The notes under the pieces: generated by a model | Database searches by the model: none | Told to the model about the DNA's origin: nothing | The model's input: the letters and a program-made list of their open reading frames with translations, nothing else | Origin: Candidatus Dojkabacteria bacterium | GTDB lineage: Bacteria > Patescibacteriota > Dojkabacteria > B142 > OLB20 | Length of the DNA stretch: 64,000 bases | Direction of reading: 5' to 3' | Assembly (NCBI GenBank): GCA_035444565.1 | Contig: DAOMOX010000002.1 | Coordinates: 211,207-275,206 of the forward strand | Translations under genes and position numbers: made by a program | In this document: positions 13,501-37,312 of the stretch, one piece after another | How positions within the stretch are numbered: position 1 is the stretch's first letter | How the letters are laid out: each line of letters opens with the position of its first letter

Positions 13501-14195
13501 TCATGTCCAAAATGCTTGTCAGCTTCATTACCATATTTTTGGAGAATAAAATCACAGGTATAAGCTAATCCTATGGATCTAGCTGCACTAAATTCGTTAA
13601 ATGTTTTCTCACCTTTACTTTTCGCGATTTGACCTACTGTGGTTGCAAAATGAACAAGCATCACACCCATTACTCCTTTACCAAGATAGGAAAGCTTTTC
13701 TTCTGAGTGTGAGTCTTCCTCTACAATTTCATCACCACTGTCATTTCTTCCTGCAGCCTCCAGTTCATCTTTAATATTCTGCAGCTTCTTTTCAAATTCC
13801 TCGTCTGTCAGATTATCTGCGGGATTGGCAGAATCTAAATTATTACCCCTATTACCTTTACCTTTGGCACTTTTTCCGTCAACCACTGAACCAGTAATTC
13901 CATTTGAATTGGCATCACCTGTATCTGGTTTGGGAATTATTCTTCTTAGAAACGGATTAGTTATAACAGGAGTAATAGCAGCCATGGCAAGAGTTTTTCC
14001 CAAGAAATCTCTTCTACCTTCATCAACAACTTTATTCTTTCCACCGCCGAATATCCTATCGCAAACATTCAAATATAATCCTACTAATGTTGGATCTGGT
14101 TCAGAGTATTCCGGCCTAGTTCCACCTTCAGGAAACATATCTCCCATCCTGCCTACAGGACCTTTCATATGTTGTTCTATTAATTCGTCAACCAT
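10560..14195 (-). CDS. giant (about 1200 aa) protein of unknown function with twin-arginine-like motif, HExxH motif and C-terminal hydrophobic segment
   Basis: RRDFLGK followed by the hydrophobic TLAMAAITPVI sits about 60 aa into the annotated ORF. An in-frame TTG 19 codons upstream of RR could be the true start. An internal HEIIH motif is present, and a C-terminal hydrophobic stretch (YWLWRIILPILAL) is followed by KK. Otherwise there are no recognisable domains. Confidence 0.6.
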   Translation of the reverse strand: MVDELIEQHMKGPVGRMGDMFPEGGTRPEYSEPDPTLVGLYLNVCDRIFGGGKNKVVDEGRRDFLGKTLAMAAITPVITNPFLRRIIPKPDTGDANSNGITGSVVDGKSAKGKGNRGNNLDSANPADNLTDEEFEKKLQNIKDELEAAGRNDSGDEIVEEDSHSEEKLSYLGKGVMGVMLVHFATTVGQIAKSKGEKTFNEFSAARSIGLAYTCDFILQKYGNEADKHFGHEIIHELTGGTPPINLILTGALSVLTNITALMENKIIEQLNLDEERIGTDKPKRGFIERTKSLLGREREQELVDEGEKQFNFFESVSTEDDDRSTIDYSSADLRKVVTEKIQKFNVEDEEERVHQQEELREDLERLNRFYKDMLVSTTSRGMGMIGALSPIFTTYLGADLGNQLGNELLDIATKKKMIENMLENLNGLNVSKDLETAMEIIEATSAVETSINMNKLGGLRGAIMFYAANASGLIGIGDPPNIFAITEALERDFLPEYIKKSQGEGIIATFASGLTASGWSLKESFGINPLTNPRFVSEFGKGIGIGLGKVGEGLINPLTTIKEIMRGTTVVDIEDFRVVKFSDIEHHDAFRSLYKGDGSVISLDTLLKHLSKEVMPSEEKASIRAEIEQLSYNLKESTAVDITKLKGVVTEYEFLTFLESTDPSSISSYDDLIEKAKLYRDENPELEFDLGQFIREVLELSPDESRSDALVREFFAKVKITDSRSFVMPGYVVTNSLKALGHTLQDGVVNVFSTVKGAVKDPRELVDKAVFLETDEHHEAGLTIFDRLVEGQEISYEEFIQFLQGFNLASGNTDIIQSIMSFTVMTGTNEDVPSGAEMTTISKYMSEFIVSLGEHRNEKGMLKVLSKVNKFFEDYKEVLIAKFSNGSGKEPIDYSTIKPELVDTLLKMLDEGVANPELTKVLGLSYDDLNVVDRQALRDAIVKMGGFNVEESEIAEGLSHSAKEVLYALLTQLSHVGAMIESAKSVFGSVDEAMGDLEPKAKLMLKLNLSTVLSGGVSMFADNVAAFLFGIATNDKIVEDYIESVGGLPGGEKQAKELKLEGFMLSLWTAIMAGSLFKSGNGPNFSLLNQHPQIEIGMKELSGDYENDNLIKEFTLDDSDTVESALEKLKKLGMTKEAAQNWYQENAASIKDKQVVLKPKVLLTPSGGLNTTQTPVDFIESFKMSKYWLWRIILPILALRTGMVYKKASTE

Positions 14196-14346: not shown

Positions 14347-15384
14347 ATGGAAATCAAGTATTCAGTAACAGAACAATTACTTAACATTATAAGTAAATTT
14401 CAAGAACTTCATGGTCGTGTTTATGGTGCCTACCATTTTCTAGATCATGAGACACAACGAAAAATCTTTCTCGAAGCCGAAGAAATCGCTGCTTTCTCTG
14501 CCGTCATAAATGATATTGGTGCTATGGAGGAGCTTAGTAAAGACTGGGATACTAGTCTTATTAATAAATTACTAAGTGCAGAAGATAAAATCTATTATCA
14601 CAATTACCTTTCAATTCTTAGAGAATTTCCTAAATTAATTCCCATTAAAGGAAATCTTATTACTTCCGAGATGTTAAAAACCATTCACAAAAATCTTCTA
14701 TCTCAAGAATCATCTTATTTTAGAACAGATACTAAGGAGATTTCATCAATAACAATCGAAGATGGAATTAAATACGAATACCAATCAACTGTGCGAACAC
14801 ATCCGAATGCAATCGTACCGAAATTGAATGAGTTCTCTAAGTGGCTGGAAAGCAATCAAGGTTTAAACCCTGTGATTTTGGCAGCGATAACGTACTTTAA
14901 AATTGCTGAAATCCATCCGTTCCATGAAGCAAATGGAAGATCCTCAAAAATATTATCTCGTGCTAAATTATACAAACATGGAATTGACACACACTTATTA
15001 CTAACTATTGATGATTATCTATTAACTAACCAACATTATTACTTCGATATCATTGAACAAACAATAAATAGCCAAGACTTAACAAAATGGATTGAGTTTT
15101 ACGCTAAAAGTTTATTACATGGAGTTACCCAAACTGCTAGATTAATCTACAACCATACAGCAGGGACTATCGATATTATGGAAAATAAGTTCACAATCCT
15201 AAAGCCCAGAGAAAAAGAAGTGATGCAAATCATAATGGATACACAAAATTCTAGCGGAGCAGAAATTGGAAGAGAGCTCAACATGACAAGACAAAACGTC
15301 AATGTCATAATTAAAGGTCTCCTGAAGAAAGGTTTAATAAAGAAAATAGGGAAGAACACAGGAGTAAGATATATCCCTTCCTAA
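14347..15384 (+). CDS. Fic-family protein (AMPylase-type) with C-terminal winged-HTH
   Basis: The Fic motif HPFHEANGRSSK matches HxFx(D/E)(A/G)N(G/K)R. The C-terminal helix-turn-helix reads TRQNVNVIIKGLLKKGLIKKIG. The true start is Met175 of the 519-aa track ORF, because the upstream part overlaps the 1211-aa gene on the other strand. Confidence 0.85.
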   Translation: MEIKYSVTEQLLNIISKFQELHGRVYGAYHFLDHETQRKIFLEAEEIAAFSAVINDIGAMEELSKDWDTSLINKLLSAEDKIYYHNYLSILREFPKLIPIKGNLITSEMLKTIHKNLLSQESSYFRTDTKEISSITIEDGIKYEYQSTVRTHPNAIVPKLNEFSKWLESNQGLNPVILAAITYFKIAEIHPFHEANGRSSKILSRAKLYKHGIDTHLLLTIDDYLLTNQHYYFDIIEQTINSQDLTKWIEFYAKSLLHGVTQTARLIYNHTAGTIDIMENKFTILKPREKEVMQIIMDTQNSSGAEIGRELNMTRQNVNVIIKGLLKKGLIKKIGKNTGVRYIPS

Positions 15385-15385
15385 T

Positions 15386-16037
15386 TTATTTCTCTGAACT
15401 TTTCAACCATTTAATTCCTAAGTACACAAATGGTGTTTCGATAATTGACATGAAGCATTTCAGAAGCCAATAAGGAATAATTAAACTTATAAGGAAGATT
15501 GCGTTTTCACTTACTCCCGAACTTAATGAATAAAATGCAAGAATCATAAACACAGAAGTATCAACAAATTGCGCGATAAAATTTGAGATATTATTTCTTA
15601 ACCACAGTTTAGATTTTCCCATTCTTTCACGGATTTTACTGAATATCTAAAATTTCTGCAAATGCGAAAGCAGTTAAACTAGCAGCAGAAATCCTTGCCG
15701 ATTTAAAGAATATAGTATCGTAAGCTGATTCGATTGCTTCAGAACGAGGAGAGGGAGTTAACCAAGTGGCAAAAAGTGAGAACATCATTATGAAAAAGAT
15801 TGTTAACAAACCGGACCTGACAATACTCCGTGCCCTTTCTTTTCCATACACTTCGATTACAACATCATTGATTGTGAAAAGTATAGGAATTAAAAAAATT
15901 GCTACACTTGCGTTTAATTGATAACCCAGAATATTGACCAAAGGAAATGTTTTGACACCACTTACCTCAGCCAGTACAAGACATGCTATATAAAAAGCAA
16001 CAAGCAAATCCATTTTATTAATTTTTTTGAAAAACAT
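15386..16037 (-). pseudogene. yhhQ: queuosine-precursor transporter (YhhQ/DUF165, VUT family) split by a frameshift
   Basis: Two adjacent ORFs (133 aa and 78 aa) sit in different frames. Together they align to YhhQ across the break (…AFAEILDIQ* / IFSKIRERMGKSKLWLRNNISNFIAQFVDT…). This implies a 3n+2 deletion near 15638-15646. Confidence 0.65.
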
Positions 16038-18472: not shown

Positions 18473-19030
18473 CTAATATGTGATACGATCTTCGAAGGTA
18501 TAGGATTTTTCTCTGTAAACAAGTGTGATTTCGATCTTATAAGAATCTTTTGGTATCGATAAATCAAAATTACTTGGATTTGAGGCACTTCTTGAAAGTT
18601 CGTATTTAGTAAAAGATTCTTTTCCTTGTATATCCCAGTAAATATCAAACGTGTCTCCACTAGTACCCCATGGTTTACCACTCACATAAGGGACAAATCC
18701 AAGATTTACGTTCACTAGTGCCATTGTTTGACTATTAACATTTGCACTAATTTCTCCATCGATTGTAACATCTGCCTGTGTATCTGAAGGAGTTGGGGCT
18801 ACAGATCCGTACATCGCAAAAAGTATAATGCTACCAAGGGTAATAAAACCAATAAGTGGATAAATATTTTTACCTAGGAAACCATAACGAGGATTTTCAA
18901 AATTATTAAGCCTACTTTTAAGATGGAATATGTATAAAACAAGTGTGACAATTACAGAGATAATTACCAGACCAATTAACAACCCTGTCAGAGAGTAACC
19001 TTGATCGTAAATTCCAAAAATATTATCCAT
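18473..19030 (-). CDS. bitopic membrane protein (2 N-terminal TM helices plus a beta-rich C-terminal domain), last gene of the VirB4-like cluster
   Basis: 185 aa with hydrophobic helices LTGLLIGLVIISVIVTLVLYIF and IYPLIGFITLGSIILFAMYG. Function unknown. Confidence 0.5.
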   Translation of the reverse strand: MDNIFGIYDQGYSLTGLLIGLVIISVIVTLVLYIFHLKSRLNNFENPRYGFLGKNIYPLIGFITLGSIILFAMYGSVAPTPSDTQADVTIDGEISANVNSQTMALVNVNLGFVPYVSGKPWGTSGDTFDIYWDIQGKESFTKYELSRSASNPSNFDLSIPKDSYKIEITLVYREKSYTFEDRITY

Positions 19031-19077
19031 AATATTTAATAATATAATATTTCTAGAAATAATAGTAATTAGTTAAT

Positions 19078-21354
19078 TTAACCTTGTGTAACATTTGGTC
19101 CAATATTCTGATTATTATTAGTTGTGTTAGCTTGAGGATAATTTACACCAAGTTGATTAATGTTTGAATATTGATTCGTTGGAGGCTGATTTGGCGTATT
19201 ATAGCCAATATTAGGTTGCATTTGTTGATTAACTCCGCCTGCATTCATTGGGGCAGGATTTTGCGGATACATTGGTTGTATATTCTGAGGAGTGGAGTTC
19301 GGGGTAGTCGTGATATTACCTCCAACATTCTGAGCATTTTGACTCATACCAGATTGACCTTGGTTTAGATAACTAGCTCCTGGGGTATTAGTTGCAGGTG
19401 TATTTTGAACAACATTAGTAATATTAGGATCTTTGGCAGTTTGAGGATTAGCCATCTCTTCGGAAATTGGAATTTGTAATTTCTCCAACCTTTGTTTCTC
19501 AGCCTTTTGAAGATTTGCATCTTCCATAGCTCTCATCTCTCTCGGATTAGTTGTTATAAGATTATGTTCATTTTCACTCGCAATAACTTGAATACCTACA
19601 TGATTATTTCCCGCAAAGAAGATACCTTCGCCGATTCCAGCAGTGAGTAGATATTGCTTTTCTCCCATTGATAGGTAGAAGACTTTTTGAAGTTTATCTG
19701 CTGCCGCTGTACTTTGTTTCAATAACACTTGAATTGATGAGTTGGTTACCACAGCTCTTCCATAATCCGTTCCAAGGAAGTCCTCTACGTCTTGGGTAAT
19801 TGTAGTCAAACCAAGTGCGTATTTTCTAGCTCTTTTTGCGATAGAGTGTAAGAACCTAGCACCCTCTTCGAATTGCATCATCCACCAAGCTTCGTCAATG
19901 ATTAATAAGCGCTCTCTTCTGTCTTTTTTAACTCTAGTCCAGATGTAATCCAACATCAGGTACATAGCAATTGGCCTCAGATCTTCAGCTAAATCTCTAA
20001 TACTAAAGACTGTGAATGAGTTTTTGATTTCGATGTTTGTTTTTTGGTCAAAAATACCTGCCGAACTACCTTTGATATATTTTTCAATCTTTTGTGCTAG
20101 CACATGTGCTTCATTTTCAGCCATTGCCATCAAAACTTTGTACAAGTCCTCTAGCAGTGGAGGTTCTCTTCTTTGGGTTGCAGGGTCAGGGGTTATGCCT
20201 TTTTCTTTATAAGTTAGTATTAATGCCCTATCAAGTATGGAACTCTCCATAGAAGTCAATGTTCCACCAACCATAAGCCTGATTAAACCATTTAATAGCA
20301 GAATTTTAAATCTCAATTCGTCTTCGTCTTTATCATAAATACCCGAAAGTTCGAATGGATTAAGTTTCTGACCTCCATCTTGAGAGAATGAGATATAATC
20401 ACCACCAGCAGTTAAACAAAGTTTTTCATATTCCTTCTCAGGGTCAATGATGATTATCTGTGTTCCCATCATTAAACTTCTGATGGCTTCAAGTTTGACC
20501 ATATAACTTTTTCCAGCTCCAGATGTAGCGAAAACTACCATGTTTGCATTTGGCATTTGGAACCTATCGAATATAATCAGACTTTTATTATGTTTATTAA
20601 TTCCGTAGAGGATTCCATCATCCATGGTAAGCTCGGATGAGACAAATGGAAAGGTAGTTGCAAGAGAAGTGGTATCCATATTTCTTGTAAGGTATATTTT
20701 GTCCATTCCCAGTGGCATACTAGTCACAAAGCCTTGCTCTTGTTGAAGTGATGCGATTTTAGTAATTACACCAAGAGCTGATAATGTTGATTCAACGTTT
20801 CTTGAGATTTTCTCTAATTCTTGTAGATTCGTTGATCTTATAGTTATATAGAGTGCAAAATGGAAAAACTTTTCATTACCACTAGCAATTGCTTGTTGTA
20901 ACTCTTCTGCATCTTTGAGGGTGATTTTGATATTTGGATCAGGGATTTTACCAGCTTCAACGTCGATATTTAAAGATGCTTGTAACTCAGCAATTTTTCT
21001 TTTCAATCTAGATAAAATCAGTGCTGAATCAACAGGATAATAAAAAGAGCTGATAGTAAGGGGTCTTTCAAAATTGATAAGTGGTGACAACCAGTTTGCA
21101 CTTACCCATCTTGGGAATCCCGTTGCAAAAAAAGTACGGAAGTACTTGCCCCCGATAAGCATATGATTGAAGTCGATTTCAATCGCCGGTGGAGCAATAA
21201 TGTCTTTGACATCCACTACTGCCTTTGAAAAATCGTCAACTGCAGCCTGTTCAAGTTGATTTTGATCAGGAGCTCCCACCATTTGAACTTGTGGAGAGTT
21301 GCTTTTCTGACCTTTTTTTAATTTATCAAATATTTTAAGTTTTGGTATTTTCAT
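19078..21354 (-). CDS. VirB4/TrbE/TraC-family type-IV-secretion ATPase with Asn/Gln/Pro-rich C-terminal tail
   Basis: N-terminal CagE/TrbE/VirB4 region (GGKYFRTFFATGFPRWVSANWLSPL), Walker A VVFATSGAGKSY and Walker B LLIIDEAWWM (the DEAW signature). The last 123 aa are low-complexity N/Q/P/T-rich. Confidence 0.8.
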   Translation of the reverse strand: MKIPKLKIFDKLKKGQKSNSPQVQMVGAPDQNQLEQAAVDDFSKAVVDVKDIIAPPAIEIDFNHMLIGGKYFRTFFATGFPRWVSANWLSPLINFERPLTISSFYYPVDSALILSRLKRKIAELQASLNIDVEAGKIPDPNIKITLKDAEELQQAIASGNEKFFHFALYITIRSTNLQELEKISRNVESTLSALGVITKIASLQQEQGFVTSMPLGMDKIYLTRNMDTTSLATTFPFVSSELTMDDGILYGINKHNKSLIIFDRFQMPNANMVVFATSGAGKSYMVKLEAIRSLMMGTQIIIIDPEKEYEKLCLTAGGDYISFSQDGGQKLNPFELSGIYDKDEDELRFKILLLNGLIRLMVGGTLTSMESSILDRALILTYKEKGITPDPATQRREPPLLEDLYKVLMAMAENEAHVLAQKIEKYIKGSSAGIFDQKTNIEIKNSFTVFSIRDLAEDLRPIAMYLMLDYIWTRVKKDRRERLLIIDEAWWMMQFEEGARFLHSIAKRARKYALGLTTITQDVEDFLGTDYGRAVVTNSSIQVLLKQSTAAADKLQKVFYLSMGEKQYLLTAGIGEGIFFAGNNHVGIQVIASENEHNLITTNPREMRAMEDANLQKAEKQRLEKLQIPISEEMANPQTAKDPNITNVVQNTPATNTPGASYLNQGQSGMSQNAQNVGGNITTTPNSTPQNIQPMYPQNPAPMNAGGVNQQMQPNIGYNTPNQPPTNQYSNINQLGVNYPQANTTNNNQNIGPNVTQG

Positions 21355-22018
21355 CCGCTTTAAATGAAGTATATTTAGTTGTAGCCAACTCCAAATTCTT
21401 CGCTCCGATTTTGTCAGGATCGTACATAGAATAATAAAGTCTTACTAGTTGTTCGTTATTTAACTGCCAAGTCTCAATTCCCATTTTCTTAAATTGTTTA
21501 AATACATGATCACGCTTAGGATACAAATTAATTTTAGCTTTATCGAAAATTGCTTTACGATTCGTAATTTGAATTCTTTTTCCAAATATTTGCTTAACTA
21601 TTCCCGTCCTTTGAACCTCTGCAGAAATCTCCGGAATTACTATGAAAAATCTTTTATCCAAGACTTCTCTATTGTATGTTAGATTTTTTATGAATTGTAA
21701 GTAGATTTCAATTTGTCGAATTAATGCCTTTGATGCTTGTTGTTGTTTAAAAGATACTAATTTTTCAACATATGCTGTTAAATCAGAGCGTTCTGTTAAA
21801 ATTACTACCTGCATTTGGAAATTAAGAGAATTTAACATTCCTGCGAACATCTTTATTTTTGCATCTTGTTCCTCCTCGGATAAAAGATCAAAGTTTACAG
21901 CACCAGTTTCAATAACCAATGATACTCTTCCATCTTTTAATAAAACCAAGTCATCTCTAATGTCTTCGATTTCAAGATGATCTTGAGTACTTATTTTTGA
22001 ATTTGAAACTATTCCCAT
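21335..22018 (-). CDS. hypothetical protein resembling the detached extreme N-terminal segment of VirB4
   Basis: 227-aa soluble ORF carrying LLKDGRVSLVIETGAVNFDLLSEEEQDAKIKMFAGMLNSL, the pattern of the VirB4 N-terminus. It overlaps the VirB4-like gene start by 20 nt. Confidence 0.4.
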   Translation of the reverse strand: MGIVSNSKISTQDHLEIEDIRDDLVLLKDGRVSLVIETGAVNFDLLSEEEQDAKIKMFAGMLNSLNFQMQVVILTERSDLTAYVEKLVSFKQQQASKALIRQIEIYLQFIKNLTYNREVLDKRFFIVIPEISAEVQRTGIVKQIFGKRIQITNRKAIFDKAKINLYPKRDHVFKQFKKMGIETWQLNNEQLVRLYYSMYDPDKIGAKNLELATTKYTSFKADENTKT

Positions 22019-22815
22019 TATTTAGCTTTAAACTTATAAAGAATGTCTTGGTTATCTTTTACATTTATTCTGTAATACTCAAAGACTAATTTAGGTGCCG
22101 CAATGCTTACAAAATAAACACCTGGACTAAGAGCCGTATCTAAATTAAACTGTCCTTTATCATCTGTAGTTACTTCGTTGATAAATTCACCGCTCTCAGA
22201 GTTTACACTAACTAACGCACCTTGTACTGGATTATCTTTATTATCTACTACAAATCCTTTAATCATTATTGTTTTAGATGAGCTGCCTTGTTCAGAAGTA
22301 ATTGTAGATGTATTTAGAGAAGTATCTGATGATTGTGTCCCGAACATTTCTTGTTCAATTTGTTTTAATCTTAGCTCCTCCTCTCTATCAGCAACAGTAA
22401 ACTCTTTCTGTACTTCAAATTTAGTCAGCGGAGCTACGGATGCTCGAATACGGCCTTCTTTTTTAACTTTCTCTAATGTTTCTTCTTTTGTTCTTTTCAC
22501 TTCTTCATGAAAAACATCTGGAACAACCCCAGTTTTTTTCCAAACTCGCTCTTGGGAAGTAAACATTGCAACAATGAAATTAGTCAACCACACAGAAGAA
22601 TATTGACCATTAATTTTTATCAGAGAAAGAAAAATCCCTAATATTACTGCGATTATAATTAATACAACTCTCAGAATCCCAGGTAAAGGTGTGAAATATA
22701 TTCCCAATGCTATCATCAGTAAGGTCGCAAGATAGGCAAATTGTTTTACAGAGAGAGCACCAAAGAGTTTGAACTCTACTTCCATTATGTTTTGTGGGAC
22801 TGCGTGTCTCTCCAT
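22018..22815 (-). CDS. 2-TM membrane protein (VirB3-like topology) fused to a carboxypeptidase-regulatory-like beta-sandwich domain
   Basis: N-terminal hairpin of two TM helices (LATLLMIALGIYFTPLPGILRVVLIIIAVILGIFL). The C-terminus (GFVVDNKDNPVQGALVSVNSESGEFINEVTTDDKGQFNLD) resembles a CarboxypepD_reg domain. It overlaps the next gene by 1 nt. Confidence 0.45.
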   Translation of the reverse strand: MERHAVPQNIMEVEFKLFGALSVKQFAYLATLLMIALGIYFTPLPGILRVVLIIIAVILGIFLSLIKINGQYSSVWLTNFIVAMFTSQERVWKKTGVVPDVFHEEVKRTKEETLEKVKKEGRIRASVAPLTKFEVQKEFTVADREEELRLKQIEQEMFGTQSSDTSLNTSTITSEQGSSSKTIMIKGFVVDNKDNPVQGALVSVNSESGEFINEVTTDDKGQFNLDTALSPGVYFVSIAAPKLVFEYYRINVKDNQDILYKFKAK

Positions 22816-23283
22816 TTATTTGATACTTTTTATAACAAAATCAACCGAGCCACCTGGTGTTGGAACGGTTACTTTATCACCTTTCTTTTTGCCTGAGAGT
22901 GATTTCCCCAGAGGTGAATCCATGGAAATTTTTCTTTCCGTAGGATCAGCTTCGTTATGTCCGACGATGATGTATTCCACATCTGCTCCTCCATCAGACT
23001 TTTGAATAGTAACTCTCCTTCCCAAATCAACAACTCCAGAATTTGATTTAGTTGAAATTTCTGCATTTGATAATAATTCTTTTAGTTGATTTATTCGATT
23101 TTCGTTAAATTCCTTTGATTCAATAGCCGATTTATAGGCAGCATTTTCCGATAAATCACCTTGTTGTCTAGCTTTCTCGATTTCGTCTGCAATTTTAGTT
23201 CGAACTATTGTCTCCCTTTCTTCTATTTCAGAAACAATTTTATCGTAACCTTCTTGTGTAAAAATTTGTTTTGGATTATTCAT
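22816..23283 (-). CDS. greA: transcription elongation factor GreA
   Basis: 155 aa with a GDLSENAAYKSA motif and a C-terminal FKBP-like domain. It is embedded between the 1036-aa gene and the VirB3-like gene with 0-1 nt spacers. Confidence 0.9.
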   Translation of the reverse strand: MNNPKQIFTQEGYDKIVSEIEERETIVRTKIADEIEKARQQGDLSENAAYKSAIESKEFNENRINQLKELLSNAEISTKSNSGVVDLGRRVTIQKSDGGADVEYIIVGHNEADPTERKISMDSPLGKSLSGKKKGDKVTVPTPGGSVDFVIKSIK

Positions 23284-23284
23284 A

Positions 23285-26200
23285 TTATTTTTTTAATTCA
23301 AACTTAAAAATCTTATCTCCTGTCAGAACACCAGAATATATGTATTTATTATTATCTTTAATAAAATCAGTGCCTTCCGGAGTTACATCGAATTCTGGGT
23401 CAAATGCAATCTCTAAATCATAGTTGCTCTCTATTCCAGGATTCTTGTTTAATCTTAACATAAAAATCGTTTGTTTTGTTTCCGGATTTGCGAATTGACT
23501 AGATGTAAAGCTCATTCCATAAGATAAATCATCATCTTCTAAATAGATATTACAAGTCTTATCTGTTGAATAAGTTGTTGATACTAACTCTGGGGCTACA
23601 TCAATATTTTCAATATTTTGAGCACCACCATTTACACACAAATATCCATTTTGTAAATTATCAACATTATTCAACCTCAAATTGAGCGTAGACTTTGCAA
23701 TATAGTCAGCATCGATATTGATAGCACCAGATATTGTCGAAATCGGGTACTTAATCAGATCGCTTTTTGCATCTGGATTGTGATTCATTCCAAAGAATAT
23801 TTCTGCATTAGGCGAATAGCCAACACCTGTAATTGACCTGAGAAATGATTCAAACTCTGGGTTATTTGAATAGTAGAGCATATCTTTCGTATTATGTGAA
23901 TATACCAATGTATTCACTATGTCGTTTATATTGTTATTAAGATTATTAAACGCATCAGCTATATTTTTTGCATATAAATTCATAATAATCTCATTCCTGG
24001 CAATTAAGTCATTTGAATTGTTTAAAAGACTAATGTTATTCAGCAAATTATCATCATTAAAATTAAGTTGTCGGAAATTAATATCACCTTGGTTTTGCAT
24101 AGCATTACTCAAAGTACCGACATTTGTGGAGATAACTAAGTCAATATTAGATTTCGTGTTTAGTTCGAAATTTCTTTCAATTACTCTTAAGAAAAGATTC
24201 GGTTCGGAAATATTGTATAAATCCTGAAAGACGATATTCTCTGCGCTAACTTCCTTACTGGAAACTAAATTTATAGAAGAAACCACATCACTTGAAACCA
24301 CATCCTTGTTTAATACAGGCGTTTTGAGGATTTCTGTATTCAATGTCTTTAATGTACCTTGGTCTATGGTGAAATTGATATAACCAACAATAGCACCGCC
24401 AGAGCTACTATACCTCGTATTGTCTTGAACAACTACCAAGTAATTTATTGGCTTTTCTCGCCCCATCAGTAATGGAAGATTATTATACTGATTTGCAATG
24501 AATTGCGAGGCTTTAAATTTCTCATCTAAATCAAGCATTTTTTCTGATGTATTTTGTATTAATTCTGCAGGAAGTCTTTGAGAGTATACGTATGCTTCTT
24601 CTTTTGATGAGGAAATCCGCCCTAAACTATCTTCAATGATTCCTCTTTGAGCATACATAGTATCCAACTCTTCTTTGAAGTTTTCACTGTCATTAGTGCT
24701 TAGCAATCTGTCCTCACCAAATCTGTATACAATACTCGGATTCGAATTATTAATAAATGTTTGCATAGGAATATATGCGTTCAATAAATCGGTATACCCT
24801 TCTGAGTAATCAATTGAACTCGCAAGATATTTCTGAGTAGAACTATATAAATCTTCTTTATTTAACAAAGAAAACAAATACTGTAAATCTTCAACTCTTG
24901 CCTGCGCTGACTCTAAGTTATCTTTAAGTTTAAGGTTATTGTCACTTGCTTCTACGAAGTTTAAGCTAGATACGTTTTCGATTACCCGATCATAATAAAC
25001 CCTCGTGAAAAATATATTTCTACTTAAACTAAACAGCGGAGAAATCAGCATGAAATAAATTACAGCAAATCCCGTGATTAGAAACAATGTTACAACGAAA
25101 TCGGTAACTGTGACGTTTTTTAGGAAAAATATTCTTCTACTAAATCCAAATAAAATATCATGAAGTGAAGTGTCAATTTTTTGTAGTATTGATTGTTTTT
25201 CCTTAGGTTTCTTGGATGATTTGTTGTTTACGTTCGCCTGTATCATGTTTCCTGTTCTGGCCATATCAAGCTTCTTCCTTTCTGCAATTAATTTAGAAAT
25301 CGCGTCACCATCACCACCTTCATTCTCAGCAACGAAAAAGAAATCACGAATTTTTTCAGACATGTTCTTAGTATTTGATACTTTCAATGAAGCATCCTCT
25401 TTAAGTGCTTTCTCAATTATTAATAGTTCTTGAATATACTCAATGGTTTGAATTAATGATCTATCAAACTCAATACGAGGTCTCCAGCCAATAGTTACTA
25501 AACTCTCTGCAGGTTTATACAATATTAATGAAGGATATTGGTCGTCTTCACTATCAAATCGTATCTCTCTTGCTGTAGGCAATAATTCTAAGAGTTTATA
25601 TGCAATTGAAAGTATTGTGACTTCTTCTGGATTAGCTAATGTGAATATTTTTCCTTTTGTACTCGCGGAGAATTGCGCTTTCAACACTCCATAAGCTGCA
25701 TCAAGATAATGAATGTAGTAATTAGCTTCTAATCCATCACCAGGTACTTTCAAGTCTTTTCCTTCAAGCCCATACCTAATAAGTTTAATGAGACTAGAAT
25801 TTTGATCAAATTCTGTACCTCGGCCAATTATTTCACCTAGTCTTAATATTCTGGCATTTATCCCCACTCTCTGAATGTACTCTTGAACCAAACTTTCAGA
25901 GTATCTTTGTATCTCAAGCTCCATATATTGTGAATGGTTCGAAGTACTATTCAGCCCGTAATTGTAATCGAGATGAGCATTTGAAATATTTAATTGATGT
26001 GCTTTTATTGAAGTTGTTAGAAGGAATTTGGAGTCAAATTTTGAACATAAATCCAAGATTGAATCTAAATAGTTAGAATTTTGCAGGTACTTTTGAGTAG
26101 AGATTTTTTCTTTAAGGTGTGTTGATTTATGTTCGAAATAAAACACATAATCAAGCCTGCGTAAATCAAGACCTAAGGTATTAATCGCAGAGAAATTTAG

Positions 26201-26395
26201 AACTGTAAGATTTTTGTACTTAACTAGTGGATCAAGAAGCTTACGAGATGCGTTGCTTTCACTGTCAATGATAATCACGTAACCACCCTGTTCCAGCAAG
26301 GATCGTGCGATCTCGACACCAAGTACATTCGCACCTTTAACGATAATAGAGGTAGGAAACCTCACTGAACCATGTAATTTTTTAACTACATTCAT
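23285..26395 (-). CDS. giant membrane protein: cytoplasmic SDR/epimerase-like N-domain, single TM helix and large extracytoplasmic C-domain
   Basis: The N-terminus is Rossmann-like (IIVKGANVLGVEIARSLLEQGGYVIIID) with a YxxxK motif (AAYGVLK). A TM helix sits near residue 440 (VTDFVVTLFLITGFAVIYFMLISPLF). An approximately 580-aa N/S/L-rich C-terminal region has no recognised motif. Confidence 0.55.
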   Translation of the reverse strand: MNVVKKLHGSVRFPTSIIVKGANVLGVEIARSLLEQGGYVIIIDSESNASRKLLDPLVKYKNLTVLNFSAINTLGLDLRRLDYVFYFEHKSTHLKEKISTQKYLQNSNYLDSILDLCSKFDSKFLLTTSIKAHQLNISNAHLDYNYGLNSTSNHSQYMELEIQRYSESLVQEYIQRVGINARILRLGEIIGRGTEFDQNSSLIKLIRYGLEGKDLKVPGDGLEANYYIHYLDAAYGVLKAQFSASTKGKIFTLANPEEVTILSIAYKLLELLPTAREIRFDSEDDQYPSLILYKPAESLVTIGWRPRIEFDRSLIQTIEYIQELLIIEKALKEDASLKVSNTKNMSEKIRDFFFVAENEGGDGDAISKLIAERKKLDMARTGNMIQANVNNKSSKKPKEKQSILQKIDTSLHDILFGFSRRIFFLKNVTVTDFVVTLFLITGFAVIYFMLISPLFSLSRNIFFTRVYYDRVIENVSSLNFVEASDNNLKLKDNLESAQARVEDLQYLFSLLNKEDLYSSTQKYLASSIDYSEGYTDLLNAYIPMQTFINNSNPSIVYRFGEDRLLSTNDSENFKEELDTMYAQRGIIEDSLGRISSSKEEAYVYSQRLPAELIQNTSEKMLDLDEKFKASQFIANQYNNLPLLMGREKPINYLVVVQDNTRYSSSGGAIVGYINFTIDQGTLKTLNTEILKTPVLNKDVVSSDVVSSINLVSSKEVSAENIVFQDLYNISEPNLFLRVIERNFELNTKSNIDLVISTNVGTLSNAMQNQGDINFRQLNFNDDNLLNNISLLNNSNDLIARNEIIMNLYAKNIADAFNNLNNNINDIVNTLVYSHNTKDMLYYSNNPEFESFLRSITGVGYSPNAEIFFGMNHNPDAKSDLIKYPISTISGAINIDADYIAKSTLNLRLNNVDNLQNGYLCVNGGAQNIENIDVAPELVSTTYSTDKTCNIYLEDDDLSYGMSFTSSQFANPETKQTIFMLRLNKNPGIESNYDLEIAFDPEFDVTPEGTDFIKDNNKYIYSGVLTGDKIFKFELKK

Positions 26396-27105
26396 TGTTG
26401 GGCAGTTAATTCAACTGGTTTTGCAAATAAATTAACCTCTAAACTCAATTCGACATCTTTTAGTTTGTCTCTTTCAGACTGTTCTGTAGGTAATATTTCA
26501 ATCTCGAGTGTATCAAAACCTTTTTTACTAAATGTTAAGATATGTGTACTGTCAATGCCTATGGGAATTGACCTTAAAGGTGTTTTACCTATATCTCTTC
26601 CGTCTAGTTTAACATCTACATCATCCACTGTCGAAAGTATATCTAGGGTTGGTTCAACACCTTTTGTGAAGCTCTTTTTAGCTGTTAATATGTGACCTTC
26701 TGAAAATAATAATGATGGACCTAAATCATATCCGATAACAACGTCAACGTCATTTTCAAAATTTATATTTCTTTCGAACTCAGAATAAAACCCATCATTA
26801 CCAGGTCTCACAATCTTAATATTATGCTCTCCTGCTTCAATTGGATAAACCTCAAGAAATGACTCTTGATCAGACGTTACACCTGCAGAATTACCATCAA
26901 CGAACACTTCCAATTCTCCCGAGAAAGCCTTAACTTTCAAGCCACTATAACTATCTCTTGAATCAATACCAAATATATTAATCCACTCGAAGTTCCATGA
27001 CTGCCATGGTGACCAAAAAGCTAATAAAATTAGAGATAATATTAACAGTGAAATTCTAGTAACTTTGCGCATTTTCAATAAAAAACTAATAGGAAATCCT
27101 ATCAA
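26392..27105 (-). CDS. signal-anchored protein with two PEGA-like domains
   Basis: N-terminal hydrophobic anchor (ISLLILSLILLAFW). Two segments match the PEGA pattern (…VDG…G.TP……G.H.I…KKGF…). It overlaps the downstream 1036-aa gene by 4 nt. Confidence 0.5.
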   Translation of the reverse strand: MIGFPISFLLKMRKVTRISLLILSLILLAFWSPWQSWNFEWINIFGIDSRDSYSGLKVKAFSGELEVFVDGNSAGVTSDQESFLEVYPIEAGEHNIKIVRPGNDGFYSEFERNINFENDVDVVIGYDLGPSLLFSEGHILTAKKSFTKGVEPTLDILSTVDDVDVKLDGRDIGKTPLRSIPIGIDSTHILTFSKKGFDTLEIEILPTEQSERDKLKDVELSLEVNLFAKPVELTAQQ

Positions 27106-27192: not shown

Positions 27193-27462
27193 TCACACTT
27201 CTACCATAATTGCTCCTCGTAGTAAGGCATGATCATTATCTGGGGTAATTACAATTTTGTAAGGTTCTCTTTTTATAACATGAGAGCCAACCACCTCAAT
27301 CGGGTCACCTTGGGACAAATCAACAAATTCACCTTCAACTATTTGACCATCTGCCCATCTTGGAGCGCGAACATCTACAGTCATGAGTCCTTTCTCACCA
27401 ACTCCGAATATTCCTAATTGTACATACTTAAAATATGGAGAAGTAGACGTTTCAGTTGACAT
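27193..27462 (-). CDS. hypothetical small protein
   Basis: 89-aa ORF between rpsI and the PEGA gene with no motif recognised. Confidence 0.4.
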   Translation of the reverse strand: MSTETSTSPYFKYVQLGIFGVGEKGLMTVDVRAPRWADGQIVEGEFVDLSQGDPIEVVGSHVIKREPYKIVITPDNDHALLRGAIMVEV

Positions 27463-27498: not shown

Positions 27499-27957
27499 TT
27501 AACGTTTCGAGAATTGGTGAGATTTTCTAGCCTTGACTCTGCCAGTTTTCTTTCTCTCAACCATTCTATCATCTCGAGTCATGAAAGAAGCCTTTCGAAG
27601 TGTAGCTTTCAGAGTTTCGTCTGATTTGACGAATGCTCTGGCAATTCCCAAACTGATTGCTTCTCTTTGAGCTTTTTTTCCACCACCTTTAACTTTAGAT
27701 GTGAAATAGAAGTCACTTAATTTTTCGAGAAGAATTAGTGGTCCGTTTACAACTTTTTGGTCTGATTTAAGTGGGAAATATTGTTTCAGCTCCATACCAT
27801 TTATAGTGCTCGTACCTTTTGATTCGAACAATCTCACTGTAGCTACAGCTGTTTTTCTTCTTCCTAGAGCGTAGTAATATTTCTCTATTTTAGCTTTTGG
27901 TTCAGCTTTCACTTCTTTTGTGGCTTTTGGTTTTGTATCTTTTTTGGTCTCTGTCAT
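27499..27957 (-). CDS. rpsI: 30S ribosomal protein S9 (with N-terminal lysine-rich extension)
   Basis: A GRRKTAVATVRL motif and the C-terminal …KARKSHQFSKR. Confidence 0.9.
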   Translation of the reverse strand: MTETKKDTKPKATKEVKAEPKAKIEKYYYALGRRKTAVATVRLFESKGTSTINGMELKQYFPLKSDQKVVNGPLILLEKLSDFYFTSKVKGGGKKAQREAISLGIARAFVKSDETLKATLRKASFMTRDDRMVERKKTGRVKARKSHQFSKR

Positions 27958-29908: not shown

Positions 29909-30493
29909 TCATCGTGAATAGAACTCAATAATTTGCTGTTCTTCAATTCCTTGATCAAGCATGTCTCTTGTTGGCAATGTCTTAACTTGACCTTCTTTTA
30001 GCCATTCTGGAACTTTTACATTTTTAAGTTCAGCTTGCATCACCTTGATATGATCTTCTTTTTGGAATTTTGCCTCCAAAGCAACTTGATCTCCAACTTT
30101 CAATGTGTATGATGGAATAGTTACTTTTTCTCCATTAACTGTTACGTGTCCATGAGTGACAAATTGTCTTGCTTGGTTTCGGGTTTTTGCAAGTTTGAGT
30201 CTATAAACAACATTATCTAATCTAAGTTCCAATAACTGCAACATTCTAGTTCCAGTATTACCTGTGGCTTTACTAGCATCTTGATAGATTTTTTTGAATT
30301 GTTTCTCCATCAAACCGTAAATTCTCTTCACTTTTTGCTTTTCTCTAAACTGAACTGCATAGTTTGAAGGTCTAGATTTTGAAGTAGTGTGTACTCCTGG
30401 TGGATTTGGTCTCTTTCTCCATGATTCATTACCGAAGATATCGTAATTTTCTCTTCTACTAATTTTCCATTTTGGTCCTGTATATCTTGCCAT
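29909..30493 (-). CDS. rpsD: 30S ribosomal protein S4
   Basis: MARYTGPKWKISRRE… with an S4 domain. Confidence 0.95.
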   Translation of the reverse strand: MARYTGPKWKISRRENYDIFGNESWRKRPNPPGVHTTSKSRPSNYAVQFREKQKVKRIYGLMEKQFKKIYQDASKATGNTGTRMLQLLELRLDNVVYRLKLAKTRNQARQFVTHGHVTVNGEKVTIPSYTLKVGDQVALEAKFQKEDHIKVMQAELKNVKVPEWLKEGQVKTLPTRDMLDQGIEEQQIIEFYSR

Positions 30494-30517
30494 TATTAAT
30501 TATCTACTTATAAAGAA

Positions 30518-30964
30518 TTAACTACCTCTTGGTTTTTTTCTAGGTGTTGTACCACCATGAGGGATAGATGTGTGATCTGATAGTGATGTCAATCTAAGTC
30601 CTCCTGTCCTCAAACCCTTTACAGCTGCTTGACGTCCCATTCCTGTACCTTTTACAATCACAGTGCCTGTTGTAACTCCAAATTTCTGAGCTTTTGCTAC
30701 AGCATCCTCTGCTGCTTTTGTTGCGGCAAATGCAGTACTTTTCTTTGAACCTTTGAAACCAACTGCTCCTGGACTACTCCAAGATAAAACATTACCATCG
30801 TAATCTGTGATGGTCACCATAGTATTGTTATAACTTGAAGAAATGAAAACTTTTACTTTTTGAACACTAAGTTTCTTTTTCTTTTTGTTTTTGAACTTTT
30901 TGCTTCCAGTATTTGCTCCGGTTGCTTTTGTTTCTTTTTTGTCTTTTTTACCTGCTTTAGCCAC
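30518..30964 (-). CDS. rpsK: 30S ribosomal protein S11 (N-terminal basic extension)
   Basis: S11 core (…TITDYDGNVLSWSSPG…). Confidence 0.9.
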   Translation of the reverse strand: MAKAGKKDKKETKATGANTGSKKFKNKKKKKLSVQKVKVFISSSYNNTMVTITDYDGNVLSWSSPGAVGFKGSKKSTAFAATKAAEDAVAKAQKFGVTTGTVIVKGTGMGRQAAVKGLRTGGLRLTSLSDHTSIPHGGTTPRKKPRGS

Positions 30965-30992
30965 TTTTAAGTAGTTTATAATAAAAATAGAT

Positions 30993-31373
30993 TTAAGTTT
31001 TTTCTAGTTTTCTCTTCAATCCTCCGACTGCGATATTTCTTCCTTTTCTAGTTACAGCGTTTGTTCTTGTTTGTTGACCTCGAACTGGAAGTCCTAATTT
31101 ATGTCTAATTCCTCTGTAGCTTTTGATGTCTTTAAGTCTTTTAACATTTCTAAATACTGTTTGTCTAAGATCTCCTTCTAGTGTTTTCTCTGCGAGTGCA
31201 TTTGAAATTCTTTTGATTTCTTGATCAGATAAATCCTTTACTCTTTTGTTTGGATCTACGTTTGTCTGTTCTAAAATCTTCTTTGAAGTTGTATGACCAA
31301 CTCCGTATATATAGGGTAATGCATATTCAATTTTTTTCTCTAAAGGCAAACTAATGCCAGCAATTCTTGCCAT
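30993..31373 (-). CDS. rpsM: 30S ribosomal protein S13
   Basis: MARIAGISLP… with an S13 signature. Confidence 0.95.
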   Translation of the reverse strand: MARIAGISLPLEKKIEYALPYIYGVGHTTSKKILEQTNVDPNKRVKDLSDQEIKRISNALAEKTLEGDLRQTVFRNVKRLKDIKSYRGIRHKLGLPVRGQQTRTNAVTRKGRNIAVGGLKRKLEKT

Positions 31374-31382
31374 ATTTAATAA

Positions 31383-31514
31383 TTAACCTTGTTTCTGCTT
31401 GTGACGTGGGTCACGTTTGCAGTATATATAAACTATTTTATTACCGTTTGCTTTTGAACGTTTAACAATGTAACAGTGTTCACAGCGTTTTTTAACAGAT
31501 GCTTTTACTTTCAT
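31383..31514 (-). CDS. rpmJ: 50S ribosomal protein L36
   Basis: Not in the ORF track because it is shorter than 60 aa. Reverse translation gives [43 protein letters not shown], a zinc-ribbon L36. Its start overlaps the infA stop (TAATG). Confidence 0.85.
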
Positions 31515-31744
31515 TAGAATCTATATGTAATTCTTCCTTTAGTTAAATCATAAGGTGTCATTTCGAGTTCTACTTCGTCACCTTTTTGTAATTTAATATA
31601 ATGCATTCGCATTCGACCTGATATGTGTCCCATTACTACATGCTTGTCACCCTTTAGGTCAATTTCAATCTTAAATTTTGTTCCTGGGAGAGTTTCAATA
31701 ATTGTCCCTCGAACTTTAAAAATTTTATCCTTATCAGATACCAT
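31514..31744 (-). CDS. infA: translation initiation factor IF-1
   Basis: 76-aa S1-like OB fold (…[20 protein letters not shown]…). Confidence 0.9.
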
Positions 31745-31897
31745 TAACTAACAATATTTCTAAATAAAAAATTGCGGCAATAAAGCCACATCACAGTAAA
31801 TGCGAATCTCGCAGTTACTCAATCGCTATATTATTTATCAAAACCTGAAAGCCATAAGCGATATAGGATTATAGCAGATAGAGTTTTTATAGACAAC

Positions 31898-32647
31898 CTA
31901 TCTTGTTAATATTTTTGCTTTGGTTTTGCCTACTGCGATTGTGTGTTCAAAGATAGCTGATCTTTTTCCATCAACTGTTAAGGTTGTCCAGCCATCATCC
32001 AATATCTCAATTTCAGAGAGTCCTTCATTTATCATAGGTTCGATTGCAATAGTCATACCTTCTTTCAATACTGGTCCATCTCCTTGCTCTCCAAAACATG
32101 GTATGTATGGCTCTTCATGGAGTTTTCTACCAATTCCGTGTCCTGTCATTTGAGTTATTACATTGAAACCAGCCAACTCAGCAATTGTTTGAATTGCATA
32201 TCCTATATCTCCAACAGTGTTTCCTTCTACAGAAAGCTCAATGCTTTTTGATAGAGCAAGCTTTGTAGTCTCTAAAAGTCTGACTGCATTATCATCAACT
32301 TTTCCAACCGGAACCGTTAATGCTGAATCCAGATAGAAATCTTGATAGATAATTCCCATATCGATGCTTATAATTTGACCTTCAACTGTGTATTCTTCAG
32401 GACTTGGGATTCCATGAACAGCAACATCATCTATGCCAGTACAGATGTTGGCTTCATACCCTTGATAACCTTTGAACGCAGGTAATACATTAAATTTTTT
32501 GCAAAGATCTCCCGCTTTATCGTCTAATTCCTTGGTAGTGATACCAGGTTTTACCGTCTCAGCGAGTGTGTTTAATATTTCAGCTAGAATACTGCCACCT
32601 GATTTCATGATGGCAATTTCTTTTTTTGTTTTAATTTTGATTGCCAC
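31898..32647 (-). CDS. map: methionine aminopeptidase type I
   Basis: 249 aa with MetAP metal-binding blocks. It overlaps the secY stop, and no adk lies between secY and map. Confidence 0.9.
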   Translation of the reverse strand: MAIKIKTKKEIAIMKSGGSILAEILNTLAETVKPGITTKELDDKAGDLCKKFNVLPAFKGYQGYEANICTGIDDVAVHGIPSPEEYTVEGQIISIDMGIIYQDFYLDSALTVPVGKVDDNAVRLLETTKLALSKSIELSVEGNTVGDIGYAIQTIAELAGFNVITQMTGHGIGRKLHEEPYIPCFGEQGDGPVLKEGMTIAIEPMINEGLSEIEILDDGWTTLTVDGKRSAIFEHTIAVGKTKAKILTR

Positions 32648-34141: not shown

Positions 34142-34162
34142 TTAGTTTATGTTAAACGTTAC

Positions 34163-34612
34163 TTAGAGAACTTTGCCACCTGCTTTTTCGATTTGTGCTT
34201 GTACAGATTTGGATACGGCAATATTTTCAACTGTGATTTTCTTTTTTAATTCGCCATTATTCAGAATCTTCACTTTTACATTTTTTCCTTTCTCACTAAT
34301 CAACCCTGCTTCTCTTAATTTTTCGACATTGATTGTATCGCCATCTTTGAAATCGTTTAATTTTTCAATTTTTACAATTTCAACTTTATTTTTAAGTTGG
34401 AAATATGCTCGTGAAAAACCTTTTAATTTAGGGATTCTGCGAGACAGAGGCATCTGACCTCCTTCGAATCCTTTTCTAGCAAGTTTATAGCCTGTTCGAG
34501 ATTTTGCTCCTTTTGATCCACGACCAACGGTATGACCTCCTTTTCCTGAGCCATATCCTCTTCCAATTCTTTTTTTGTTTTTAGTTGTCTTTAGTAAATA
34601 GTTATGTATCAT
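34163..34612 (-). CDS. rplO: 50S ribosomal protein L15
   Basis: Glycine-rich N-terminus (RIGRGYGSGKGGHTVGRGSKG). It lies directly after rpsE with no L30 gene. Confidence 0.9.
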   Translation of the reverse strand: MIHNYLLKTTKNKKRIGRGYGSGKGGHTVGRGSKGAKSRTGYKLARKGFEGGQMPLSRRIPKLKGFSRAYFQLKNKVEIVKIEKLNDFKDGDTINVEKLREAGLISEKGKNVKVKILNNGELKKKITVENIAVSKSVQAQIEKAGGKVL

Positions 34613-35187: not shown

Positions 35188-35201
35188 TAATATTTGTCTA
35201 A

Positions 35202-35543
35202 TTAAAATATAAGTCCACCATCTTTTGCCCCTTGGGCAAGTTCTTTGATTCTACCATGGAATTTAAATCCATTTCTGTCAAACACGACTTTCGTTATCTT
35301 TTTTGCCTGAGCTAATTTTGCTAAACTCTCTCCTACCAATTTTGCTTTTTCAGACTTTGTACCCTTTTCAAGTTTTACATCGCTAGTTGCCATCAATGTT
35401 TGACTATTTGAATCATCAACTAGTTGTGCATAGATGTGTTGGTTAGTTTTATAAACAGACAATCTTGGTCTTTCCATAGTTCCAATCACTCTATTTCTGA
35501 TTTTTAATTTTCTTCTATTTCGTCTATCTGTTTTTGTAATCAT
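35202..35543 (-). CDS. rplR: 50S ribosomal protein L18
   Basis: 113-aa L18 fold in the operon position. Confidence 0.9.
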   Translation of the reverse strand: MITKTDRRNRRKLKIRNRVIGTMERPRLSVYKTNQHIYAQLVDDSNSQTLMATSDVKLEKGTKSEKAKLVGESLAKLAQAKKITKVVFDRNGFKFHGRIKELAQGAKDGGLIF

Positions 35544-35560
35544 TGTTTCAATTTAATACT

Positions 35561-36127: not shown

Positions 36128-36129
36128 TA

Positions 36130-36528: not shown

Positions 36529-36545
36529 AATTTGAATTTAAAAAC

Positions 36546-37310: not shown

Positions 37311-37312
37311 AA

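Follow-up and report, generated by a model that had tools for sequence, protein, structure and literature searches.

A Patescibacteria-type VirB4 secretion core beside a separable PEGA-SDR/DUF4012-GreA gene trio in Candidatus Dojkabacteria

The window analysed here is a 64,000-nucleotide (nt) stretch of the genome of a Candidatus Dojkabacteria bacterium (GenBank assembly GCA_035444565.1, contig DAOMOX010000002.1, positions 211,207 to 275,206), and the element in question is a block of seven minus-strand genes at positions 18473-27105 of the window that includes virB4, the ATPase gene of a type IV secretion system (T4SS). ORF calls and translations confirm all seven open reading frames (ORFs) at these coordinates. 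With its flanks the block reads rpsI, PEGA, SDR/DUF4012, greA, prgI, trsD, virB4, p185 and rnpB, where SDR stands for short-chain dehydrogenase/reductase and p185 for a protein of 185 amino acids (aa). The region is composed of two adjacent, separable modules. Module A encodes a PEGA protein, a giant SDR/DUF4012 protein with a transmembrane (TM) helix and GreA, and module B encodes PrgI, TrsD, VirB4 and p185. The features of the locus are:

26392..27072, minus strand: module A gene 1, PEGA protein, 226 aa (the longest ORF starts from TTG 27105)
23285..26395, minus strand: module A gene 2, SDR-TM-DUF4012 protein, 1036 aa
22816..23283, minus strand: module A gene 3, GreA transcript-cleavage factor, 155 aa, housekeeping
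22018..22815, minus strand: module B gene 1, VirB3/PrgI with CarboxypepD_reg domain, 265 aa
21335..22018, minus strand: module B gene 2, TrsD-like protein, 227 aa, with a 20-nt overlap with virB4
19078..21354, minus strand: module B gene 3, VirB4 ATPase, CD1110 family, 758 aa
18473..19030, minus strand: module B gene 4, Dojkabacteria-specific p185, 185 aa
17992..18455, minus strand: rnpB (RNase P RNA), boundary marker, Rfam RF00010, 110.3 bits
27111..27139, minus strand: promoter-like site composed of TTCCCA, a 17-nt spacer and a TG-extended TATAAT (10/12 consensus matches, TG before the -10 element)

Counted in coordinate order from the p185 gene (18473) to the PEGA gene (27072), the junctions between the genes are +47, -20, -1, 0, +1 and -4 nt, which bears out the seven consecutive, tightly joined genes described by a first-pass annotation of the same DNA. 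For every ORF of the block, homologues of corresponding length occur in relatives, which identifies the seven as genes rather than chance ORFs. The compactness that the annotation pointed out is nevertheless the norm of this genome, as spacings of 50 nt or less are seen for 67% of the remaining same-strand gene pairs of the window, whose median spacing is 21 nt.

The division into two modules emerges from comparative synteny. On the VirB4 side 85 sources were compared, with 80 loci fetched from species-representative genomes and four through exact-protein look-ups, and on the side of the giant protein 45 metagenome loci that were seeded with it; ORFs were called in the fetched loci and searched with iteratively built hidden Markov models of the window proteins. 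PrgI, TrsD and VirB4 are collinear in about 78 of the 85 loci, which derive from Dojkabacteria, Microgenomatia, ABY1, Berkelbacteria and metagenome-assembled genomes (MAGs) labelled Saccharimonadales. The synteny across Patescibacteria that the first-pass annotation suggested comparing thus exists for these three genes, but the PEGA, SDR/DUF4012, greA and p185 genes are found beside virB4 only in Dojkabacteria loci (the window, L001-L007 and L010). Loci L008, L009 and L011-L013, at 51-65% VirB4 identity, are already devoid of all four, and module A adjoins VirB4 in none of the non-Dojkabacteria loci among the 85.

Module A in turn keeps its own company. Wherever a related locus includes upstream sequence, the gene directly ahead of SDR/DUF4012 is the PEGA gene, and greA follows SDR/DUF4012 in nearly every locus with downstream sequence, including loci without an adjacent T4SS; the two loci in which greA was not detected, L106 and L108, offer little sequence on that side. 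The T4SS genes directly follow module A in about 15 of the giant-seeded metagenomic loci. In L004 three unrelated genes, two of them on the opposite strand, lie between greA and prgI, and in L085 two genes occupy this position. Five further loci (L086, L093, L100, L101 and L104) retain PEGA-SDR/DUF4012-GreA with no T4SS detected within 3.9-9.5 kb downstream. Because the modules are split in L004 and L085, and because module A occurs without a detected T4SS in five loci, the two are regarded as separate units, and where they part GreA stays with module A and not with the T4SS. The proposal that GreA, the giant and the PEGA protein are partners of the secretion genes is therefore not upheld: they form an invariant trio of their own that is separable from the T4SS and absent beside VirB4 outside Dojkabacteria. 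The insertion in L085, a divergent Dojkabacteria contig, includes at 14821-15500 a DUF3800 gene together with a DUF3800-IX RNA motif (RF02968, 60.5 bits).

The VirB4 protein of module B passes the NF045971 model of the CD1110 family with 395.7 bits against a cutoff of 325, matches the Pfam families P-loop_TraG (80.2 bits) and AAA_10 (44.8 bits), and aligns to the solved VirB4 C-terminal domain (PDB 4AG5) with an E-value of 6e-46. The Walker A (S278-G-A-G-K-S283) and Walker B (D487-E-A-W490) motifs are invariant in a 12-sequence alignment with relatives at 62-89% identity. The protein ends in a tail of 158 aa rich in N, Q, P and T (residues 601-758; 19078-19551, minus strand), so that the ATPase with Walker A, DEAW box and N/Q-rich tail had been correctly recognised at first pass. 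Only the closest relatives, such as P0001 (773 aa), possess the tail; of the other Patescibacteria VirB4 proteins most have a length of 574-710 aa and a few reach about 800-900 aa. The 120 VirB4 matches listed and the 80 genome loci all belong to Patescibacteria or to MAGs mislabelled by pipelines, at 45-91% identity, and the closest homologues of both VirB4 and the giant protein are annotated as Candidatus Dojkabacteria or WS6.

VirB4 aligns from position 174 of the CD1110 model onwards, and the canonical N-terminal ~170 residues are not part of the same polypeptide. The 227-aa ORF ahead of it matches the NCBIfam VirB4_plasma model at positions 100-280 (E 1.4e-9) and the TrsD model (E 1.8e-6). 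On NF045975 this ORF covers positions 100-280 and VirB4 positions 292-893, such that TrsD and VirB4 jointly span a canonical VirB4; homologues of TrsD carry precomputed matches to the TraC-like family PF26593. What had been noted as a detached VirB4 N-terminal-like ORF is thus a member of a known family. A frameshift or pseudogene was considered as the cause of the split and rejected, since a free-standing TrsD ORF is kept ahead of VirB4 in essentially all 85 loci.

The first gene of module B encodes a homologue of VirB3, as a match to Pfam PrgI (34.4 bits, cutoff 27) is followed by one to CarboxypepD_reg (40.6 bits, cutoff 32.3), in agreement with the two-TM VirB3-like protein fused to a β-sandwich that had been proposed. 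It is predicted to consist of a two-TM hairpin, a low-complexity linker and the C-terminal CarboxypepD_reg β-sandwich. Fusions of this kind, 263-587 aa long depending on the linker, also occur in L002, L004, L007, L011 and L034, of which L011 and L034 are more distant than the other Dojkabacteria loci, and the ABY1-type loci encode a short PrgI of 136-167 aa. In VirB3 the C-terminus contacts VirB4 in the cytoplasm; judging from this analogy and from the positive-inside rule, the C-terminal sandwich of PrgI may likewise be cytoplasmic.

p185 is encoded directly 3' of virB4 in Dojkabacteria loci only and has 15 detectable homologues. Two TM helices are predicted, with a basic loop between them that contains the invariant motif GFLGK, and the protein is therefore not bitopic as had been suggested. 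The AlphaFold model (pLDDT 79.7) contains a 7-strand immunoglobulin (Ig)-like β-sandwich with values above 90, and the charge distribution predicts that both termini, and with them the Ig-like sandwich, are outside the cell. A Foldseek structure search of the PDB returned only generic Ig-like matches with E-values of 4e-3 or weaker, and a Pfam scan of 15 members found only sub-threshold hits such as WxLIP_HBD (4/15, best E 5.9e-4). Two assignments were rejected. The two TM helices and 7-strand sandwich of the model do not agree with an analogue of VirB8/PrgL, which would be bitopic and NTF2-like. An hhalign comparison with the ~200-aa family that follows VirB4 in other classes (ABY1-type) gave a probability of 11% and thus no profile similarity. 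A type IV (pseudo)pilin is not supported either, as N_methyl reaches 15.3 bits against a cutoff of 21.2 in 1/15 members; p185 has no Glu at +5 of the prepilin motif G/F-x3-E and possesses a second TM helix. In the Microgenomatia-type loci L016-L044 the gene after virB4 encodes a large protein of 423-1210 aa with a single central TM helix, and in ABY1-type loci it encodes an N-terminally anchored, bitopic protein of about 200 aa; the partner therefore differs by class.

Profile searches with Pfam and NCBIfam likewise corroborate the PEGA protein, the SDR-like protein with one TM helix and a large C-terminal domain, and GreA of module A. The PEGA protein matches its Pfam family with an E-value of 2.5e-9, contains two PEGA-like β-sandwich stretches and is signal-anchored by an N-terminal hydrophobic segment. 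Its homologues are 225-231 aa long, for which reason the most likely start is ATG 27072, giving 226 aa, rather than TTG 27105. GreA passes TIGR01462 with 154.9 bits (cutoff 139) and contains both Pfam GreA domains, PF03449 and PF01272.

The 1036-aa protein matches the Pfam Epimerase/SDR family (E 9e-12) and DUF4012 (PF13196; E 2.7e-5), the latter with 25.1 bits and hence below the gathering cutoff of 28 bits; many of its homologues carry a precomputed PF13196 match. A single TM helix is predicted at residues ~422-440. The domain preceding it adopts an extended SDR (Rossmann) fold resembling UDP-glucuronate decarboxylase. In an alignment to the latter enzyme, UXS1, the signature of an active SDR (GxxGxxG cofactor motif and catalytic Tyr-x3-Lys) is not found: VKGANVLG stands in place of the glycine motif TGGAGFVG, and the position of the catalytic Lys is taken by Gln163, which is invariant in 53 family sequences. 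Tyr157 and the acidic Asp44 are kept. Due to the degenerate glycine motif and the exchange of Lys for Gln163, the SDR domain is probably a pseudoenzyme that binds or senses a nucleotide or nucleotide-sugar without catalysis. In the model the TM helix is succeeded by a stalk of helices, the DUF4012 α/β domain and a C-terminal β-sandwich with two invariant Cys residues, which is consistent with an extracytoplasmic location of this portion. The C-terminal 607 aa retrieve 86 cluster representatives among 1.84 billion, nearly all of them ~1000-1070 aa long and of the same layout; the SDR-DUF4012 fusion of ~1040 aa hence appears to be a narrow, fast-evolving family confined to Dojkabacteria. DUF4012 occurs in a capsular polysaccharide/exopolysaccharide (CPS/EPS) locus of Bifidobacterium and is enriched in Gram-positives and the candidate phyla radiation (CPR) (PMC5412050, PMC6744442). 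Module A is most likely involved in the biogenesis of the envelope or of cell-surface glycans, perhaps by sensing nucleotide-sugars, rather than in secretion.

The block is part of the core chromosome, as the first-pass annotation had stated, and is flanked by rpsI and rnpB. On its upstream side the same strand carries the end of the ribosomal alpha operon, rpoA, rplQ, rplM and rpsI (27499-27957), with the S10-spc-alpha ribosomal cluster just upstream of rplM-rpsI. rnpB starts 17 nt downstream of the p185 gene on the same strand and also follows it in L001, L002, L003 and L007. G+C content is flat across the window (0.33-0.38) and the same chromosomal site recurs across species; a mobile-element origin is rejected on composition, position and gene content. 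rpsI and the PEGA gene are 393 nt apart, and the promoter-like site in this gap is a candidate for the point at which transcription of the unit begins. A terminator scan gave no convincing intergenic match within the block; its hits fall in coding sequence at background frequency. In this strain all seven genes are probably transcribed as one unit from the promoter upstream of the PEGA gene. The unusually long rpsI-PEGA gap is filled by an 89-aa ORF (27193-27462, minus strand), which was rejected as a member of the block as it has no counterpart in related loci, whose gap is ~60-210 nt. In five genomes rnpB lies 10-35 nt past the last gene of the T4SS block (L001 12951-13423; L002 12557-12918; L003 12535-12888; L007 12446-12776; and the window). 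The copies of the window and L001 are ~100 nt longer (464-473 versus 331-362 nt) and score lower (110-117 versus 144-166 bits), which suggests an insertion in their sublineage.

Pfam scans covered 52 of the 67 window ORFs of at least 100 aa; the 15 others (29909-42799) belong to the ribosomal-protein cluster, where their position marks them as ribosomal-protein/secY-operon genes. The scanned ORFs are housekeeping and transport genes, and no VirD4/type IV coupling protein, VirB6, VirB8, VirB1-type hydrolase, relaxase or integrase was detected among them in the 64-kb window, which extends the earlier remark that VirD4, VirB6, relaxase and integrase are missing. Pilin genes were not found between 17.9 and 27.5 kb, a fully occupied segment in which small two-TM ORFs are lacking. 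Two adjacent genes at 59033-60256 and 57923-58984 (minus strand), some 38 kb away from virB4, have no confident family; one encodes 407 aa with ~5 TM helices and weak SpoIIIAH-like/DUF3169 hints, the other 353 aa.

Patescibacteria carry a chromosomal, monophyletic T4SS that is related to the mating-pair formation (MPF) class MPF-FATA, and an ancient transfer from monoderms has been inferred for it. Its commonest components are TrsD, PrgI/VirB3 and VirB4, with VirB2-like pilins as frequent and relaxases as rare additions; in the supplementary tables of the study Dojkabacteria genomes are entered as VirB4-positive, and its text gives no per-gene neighbourhood data for GreA, PEGA or DUF4012 (Quinonero-Coronel et al. 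2025, Microb Genom, PMC12102498). The T4SS of Southlakia epibionticum is essential for epibiotic growth and has no recognisable coupling or relaxase proteins (Wang et al. 2023, Cell, PMC10633639; review PMC12857230). Taken with the synteny, the block is most likely this published T4SS core placed next to a separable Dojkabacteria envelope/GreA module, both within a housekeeping block. Since PrgI-TrsD-VirB4 is the published signature of the Patescibacteria T4SS, the core is not a new layout as the first-pass annotation had supposed; what stands of that claim is that PEGA-SDR/DUF4012-GreA neighbours are not mentioned in PMC12102498. The locus is a lineage-specific version of a known system and not a new kind of machine. 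As the T4SS genes are embedded in a syntenic block of housekeeping genes, their tight linkage to greA, rnpB and ribosomal genes implies no shared function, and the predicted co-transcription reflects genome compaction rather than an obligatory functional unit.

Module B would constitute the inner-membrane/ATPase core of the chromosomal Patescibacteria T4SS. By analogy with solved T4SSs, hexamers of VirB4 would energise assembly and the passage of substrates, anchored to the membrane via the two-TM VirB3/PrgI and TrsD, and TrsD would replace the missing N-terminal domain of VirB4. The Dojkabacteria additions would be the sandwich on the PrgI C-terminus and a small protein with two TM helices and an Ig-like domain exposed on the cell exterior. 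As no relaxase or coupling protein is nearby, the system most likely does not conjugate, and the non-conjugative role in host interaction proposed at first pass agrees with the literature on Patescibacteria T4SSs (PMC10633639, PMC12102498). It more probably serves episymbiosis by transferring protein or another macromolecule to or from the host cell, which matches the Southlakia T4SS. Module A would contribute a PEGA surface protein and a TM protein with a probably inactive SDR domain, similar to UDP-sugar enzymes, inside the cell and DUF4012 outside, followed by greA.

Several observations weigh against this two-module interpretation. The full eight-gene order is kept in L111, L116, L117 and L126, where the SDR/DUF4012 proteins are only 26-30% identical, and such retention of order despite divergence is compatible with selection for linkage of the modules. 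The promoter is a consensus match only and such sites are not enriched in the region. Near virB4 there is no VirB6, VirB8, VirB1 or VirB2-like gene, which leaves the envelope-crossing part unexplained and makes the lineage-specific envelope proteins encoded nearby formal candidates for it. A single machine could accordingly be envisaged in which the PEGA and SDR-TM-DUF4012 proteins are envelope-spanning or wall-remodelling T4SS parts that replace VirB6, VirB8 and VirB1, and GreA aids processive transcription of the long operon. The rpsI-to-p185 order found in ~15 metagenomic and eight genome loci despite module A identities of 26-40% would fit such a machine, as would the junctions of 0-1 nt or overlaps, the failure to detect VirB6, VirB8, VirB1 and pilin genes in the window, and the fact that each of the four lineage-specific proteins belongs to the membrane or the surface and has β-sandwich domains. 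It is unlikely, however, because five loci contain module A with no T4SS adjoining it and other genes intervene between the two in L004 and L085, including opposite-strand genes in the former; because in all other Patescibacteria classes examined the PrgI-TrsD-VirB4 triad works in the absence of module A; and because GreA remains with module A and not with the T4SS when the two separate. DUF4012 is moreover otherwise tied to polysaccharide loci, and rnpB and the ribosomal genes are equally tightly linked yet functionally unrelated. Quite improbable is the more specific proposal that the PEGA protein, the pseudo-UXS/DUF4012 protein, the sandwich-tipped VirB3 and the Ig-like p185 replace VirB6, VirB8, VirB1 and pilins in a system whose assembly is coupled to nucleotide-sugar sensing; if true, this lineage-specific replacement of envelope-spanning parts would make it a structurally new minimal T4SS.

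An importer has also to be weighed, that is a Ced-like or pilus-like uptake of host nucleic acids or other macromolecules into a nucleotide-auxotrophic episymbiont. VirB4 bears a weak likeness to CedB, the archaeal DNA-import ATPase (E 2.4e-17), and genes for secreted effectors are not apparent next to the locus. Feeding on host RNA has been proposed for a cultivated member of the phylum, at whose host interface tubular structures, possibly T4SS pili, were seen (10.64898/2026.06.21.733656, 2026 preprint). The CedB match of 62.8 bits is nevertheless far under the cutoff of 700 bits while the conjugative CD1110 model is passed, the locus contains no CedA-like channel and no pilins, and the direction of transport is not readable from sequence, all of which makes a dedicated importer very doubtful. 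Scarcely credible is a decayed, non-functional remnant of a Gram-positive-type integrated conjugative element that lost relaxase, coupling protein and integrase, for even though the CD1110 family of conjugative-transposon VirB4 proteins gives the best curated match, three or four T4SS genes are left with no other MPF genes in 64 kb, and the monoderm transfer inferred in PMC12102498 was ancient, all genes are intact with the Walker motifs invariant among relatives, the rpsI-rnpB position recurs in many species and the triad is conserved phylum-wide, no compositional anomaly, integrase, tRNA-flanked boundary or repeats were noted, and the homologous Southlakia system is essential.

The two-module arrangement leaves the current picture of T4SSs unchanged; it refines the catalogue and supplies candidates for missing parts. 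Mildly new are the VirB3-sandwich fusion, the 185-aa partner, the pseudo-UXS/DUF4012 family and a setting with no recognisable channel, VirB8 or pilin genes nearby. The Patescibacteria T4SS is among the few machines that are experimentally tied to an episymbiotic lifestyle, and the locus shows its Dojkabacteria form, with a stripped-down PrgI-TrsD-VirB4 core, a β-sandwich on VirB3 and a class-specific two-TM/Ig-like partner. The Dojkabacteria-only envelope pair of PEGA protein and pseudoenzyme SDR-DUF4012 is a reasonable target for work on the CPR cell surface.

Other genes of the window were noted beyond the block. A 1211-aa ORF at 10560-14195 (minus strand; 1212 aa in L001) has no Pfam match; it contains RRDFLGK at residues 61-67 followed by a hydrophobic stretch, which is twin-arginine-like, and a further hydrophobic segment at 244-262. 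In its 3' part it overlaps an opposite-strand Fic ORF taken in its long form, in which a Fic/DOC domain is fused to a MarR-type winged-helix (~14347-15384, plus strand; 345 aa in L001). At 15386-16037 (minus strand) a Vut_1 transporter for queuosine-precursor/vitamin uptake is apparently split into a 133-aa ORF, corresponding to model positions 2-84/152, and a 78-aa two-TM ORF 13 nt downstream, which may reflect a frameshift or a pseudogene.

Among known systems the locus most closely resembles the Patescibacteria T4SS, with which it shares the monoderm-type composition of a VirB4 with separate TrsD and PrgI/VirB3 directly upstream, the chromosomal location in a housekeeping neighbourhood and the lack of a relaxase or coupling protein nearby. 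It differs in that no VirB2-like array and no VirB6-, VirB8- or VirB1-like genes are found near virB4 in the window, in the CarboxypepD_reg sandwich of the Dojkabacteria PrgI and the two-TM/Ig-like protein after virB4, in its position between rplM-rpsI and rnpB as opposed to near dnaA in most classes (PMC12102498), and in its PEGA-SDR/DUF4012-GreA neighbours. With the MPF-FATA systems (TrsC-TrsD-TrsE of pGO1/pSK41, PrgI-PrgJ of pCF10 and CD1110 of CTn2) it has in common a CD1110-family VirB4 and a PrgI-type VirB3, and with the pGO1 subclass the separate TrsD-type N-terminal-like protein. Unlike these systems, the window has no relaxase, VirD4/TcpA, PrgH/VirB6, PrgL/VirB8, PrgK/TrsG hydrolase or adhesin, and the locus is not on a mobile element but is conserved in the core chromosome. 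In module A the SDR domain departs from UXS1 (UDP-glucuronate decarboxylase, PDB 2B69/4GLL) in its invariant Gln for Lys and its degenerate glycine motif, as well as in its fusion to a TM helix and a 600-aa DUF4012 ectodomain. The giant resembles BL105A_0406 of the Bifidobacterium longum CPS/EPS locus as a membrane-anchored, extracytoplasmic DUF4012 protein; it differs from it by the added SDR-like cytoplasmic domain and C-terminal sandwich with a disulfide, and no glycosyltransferase or Wzz genes adjoin it, in contrast to that locus.

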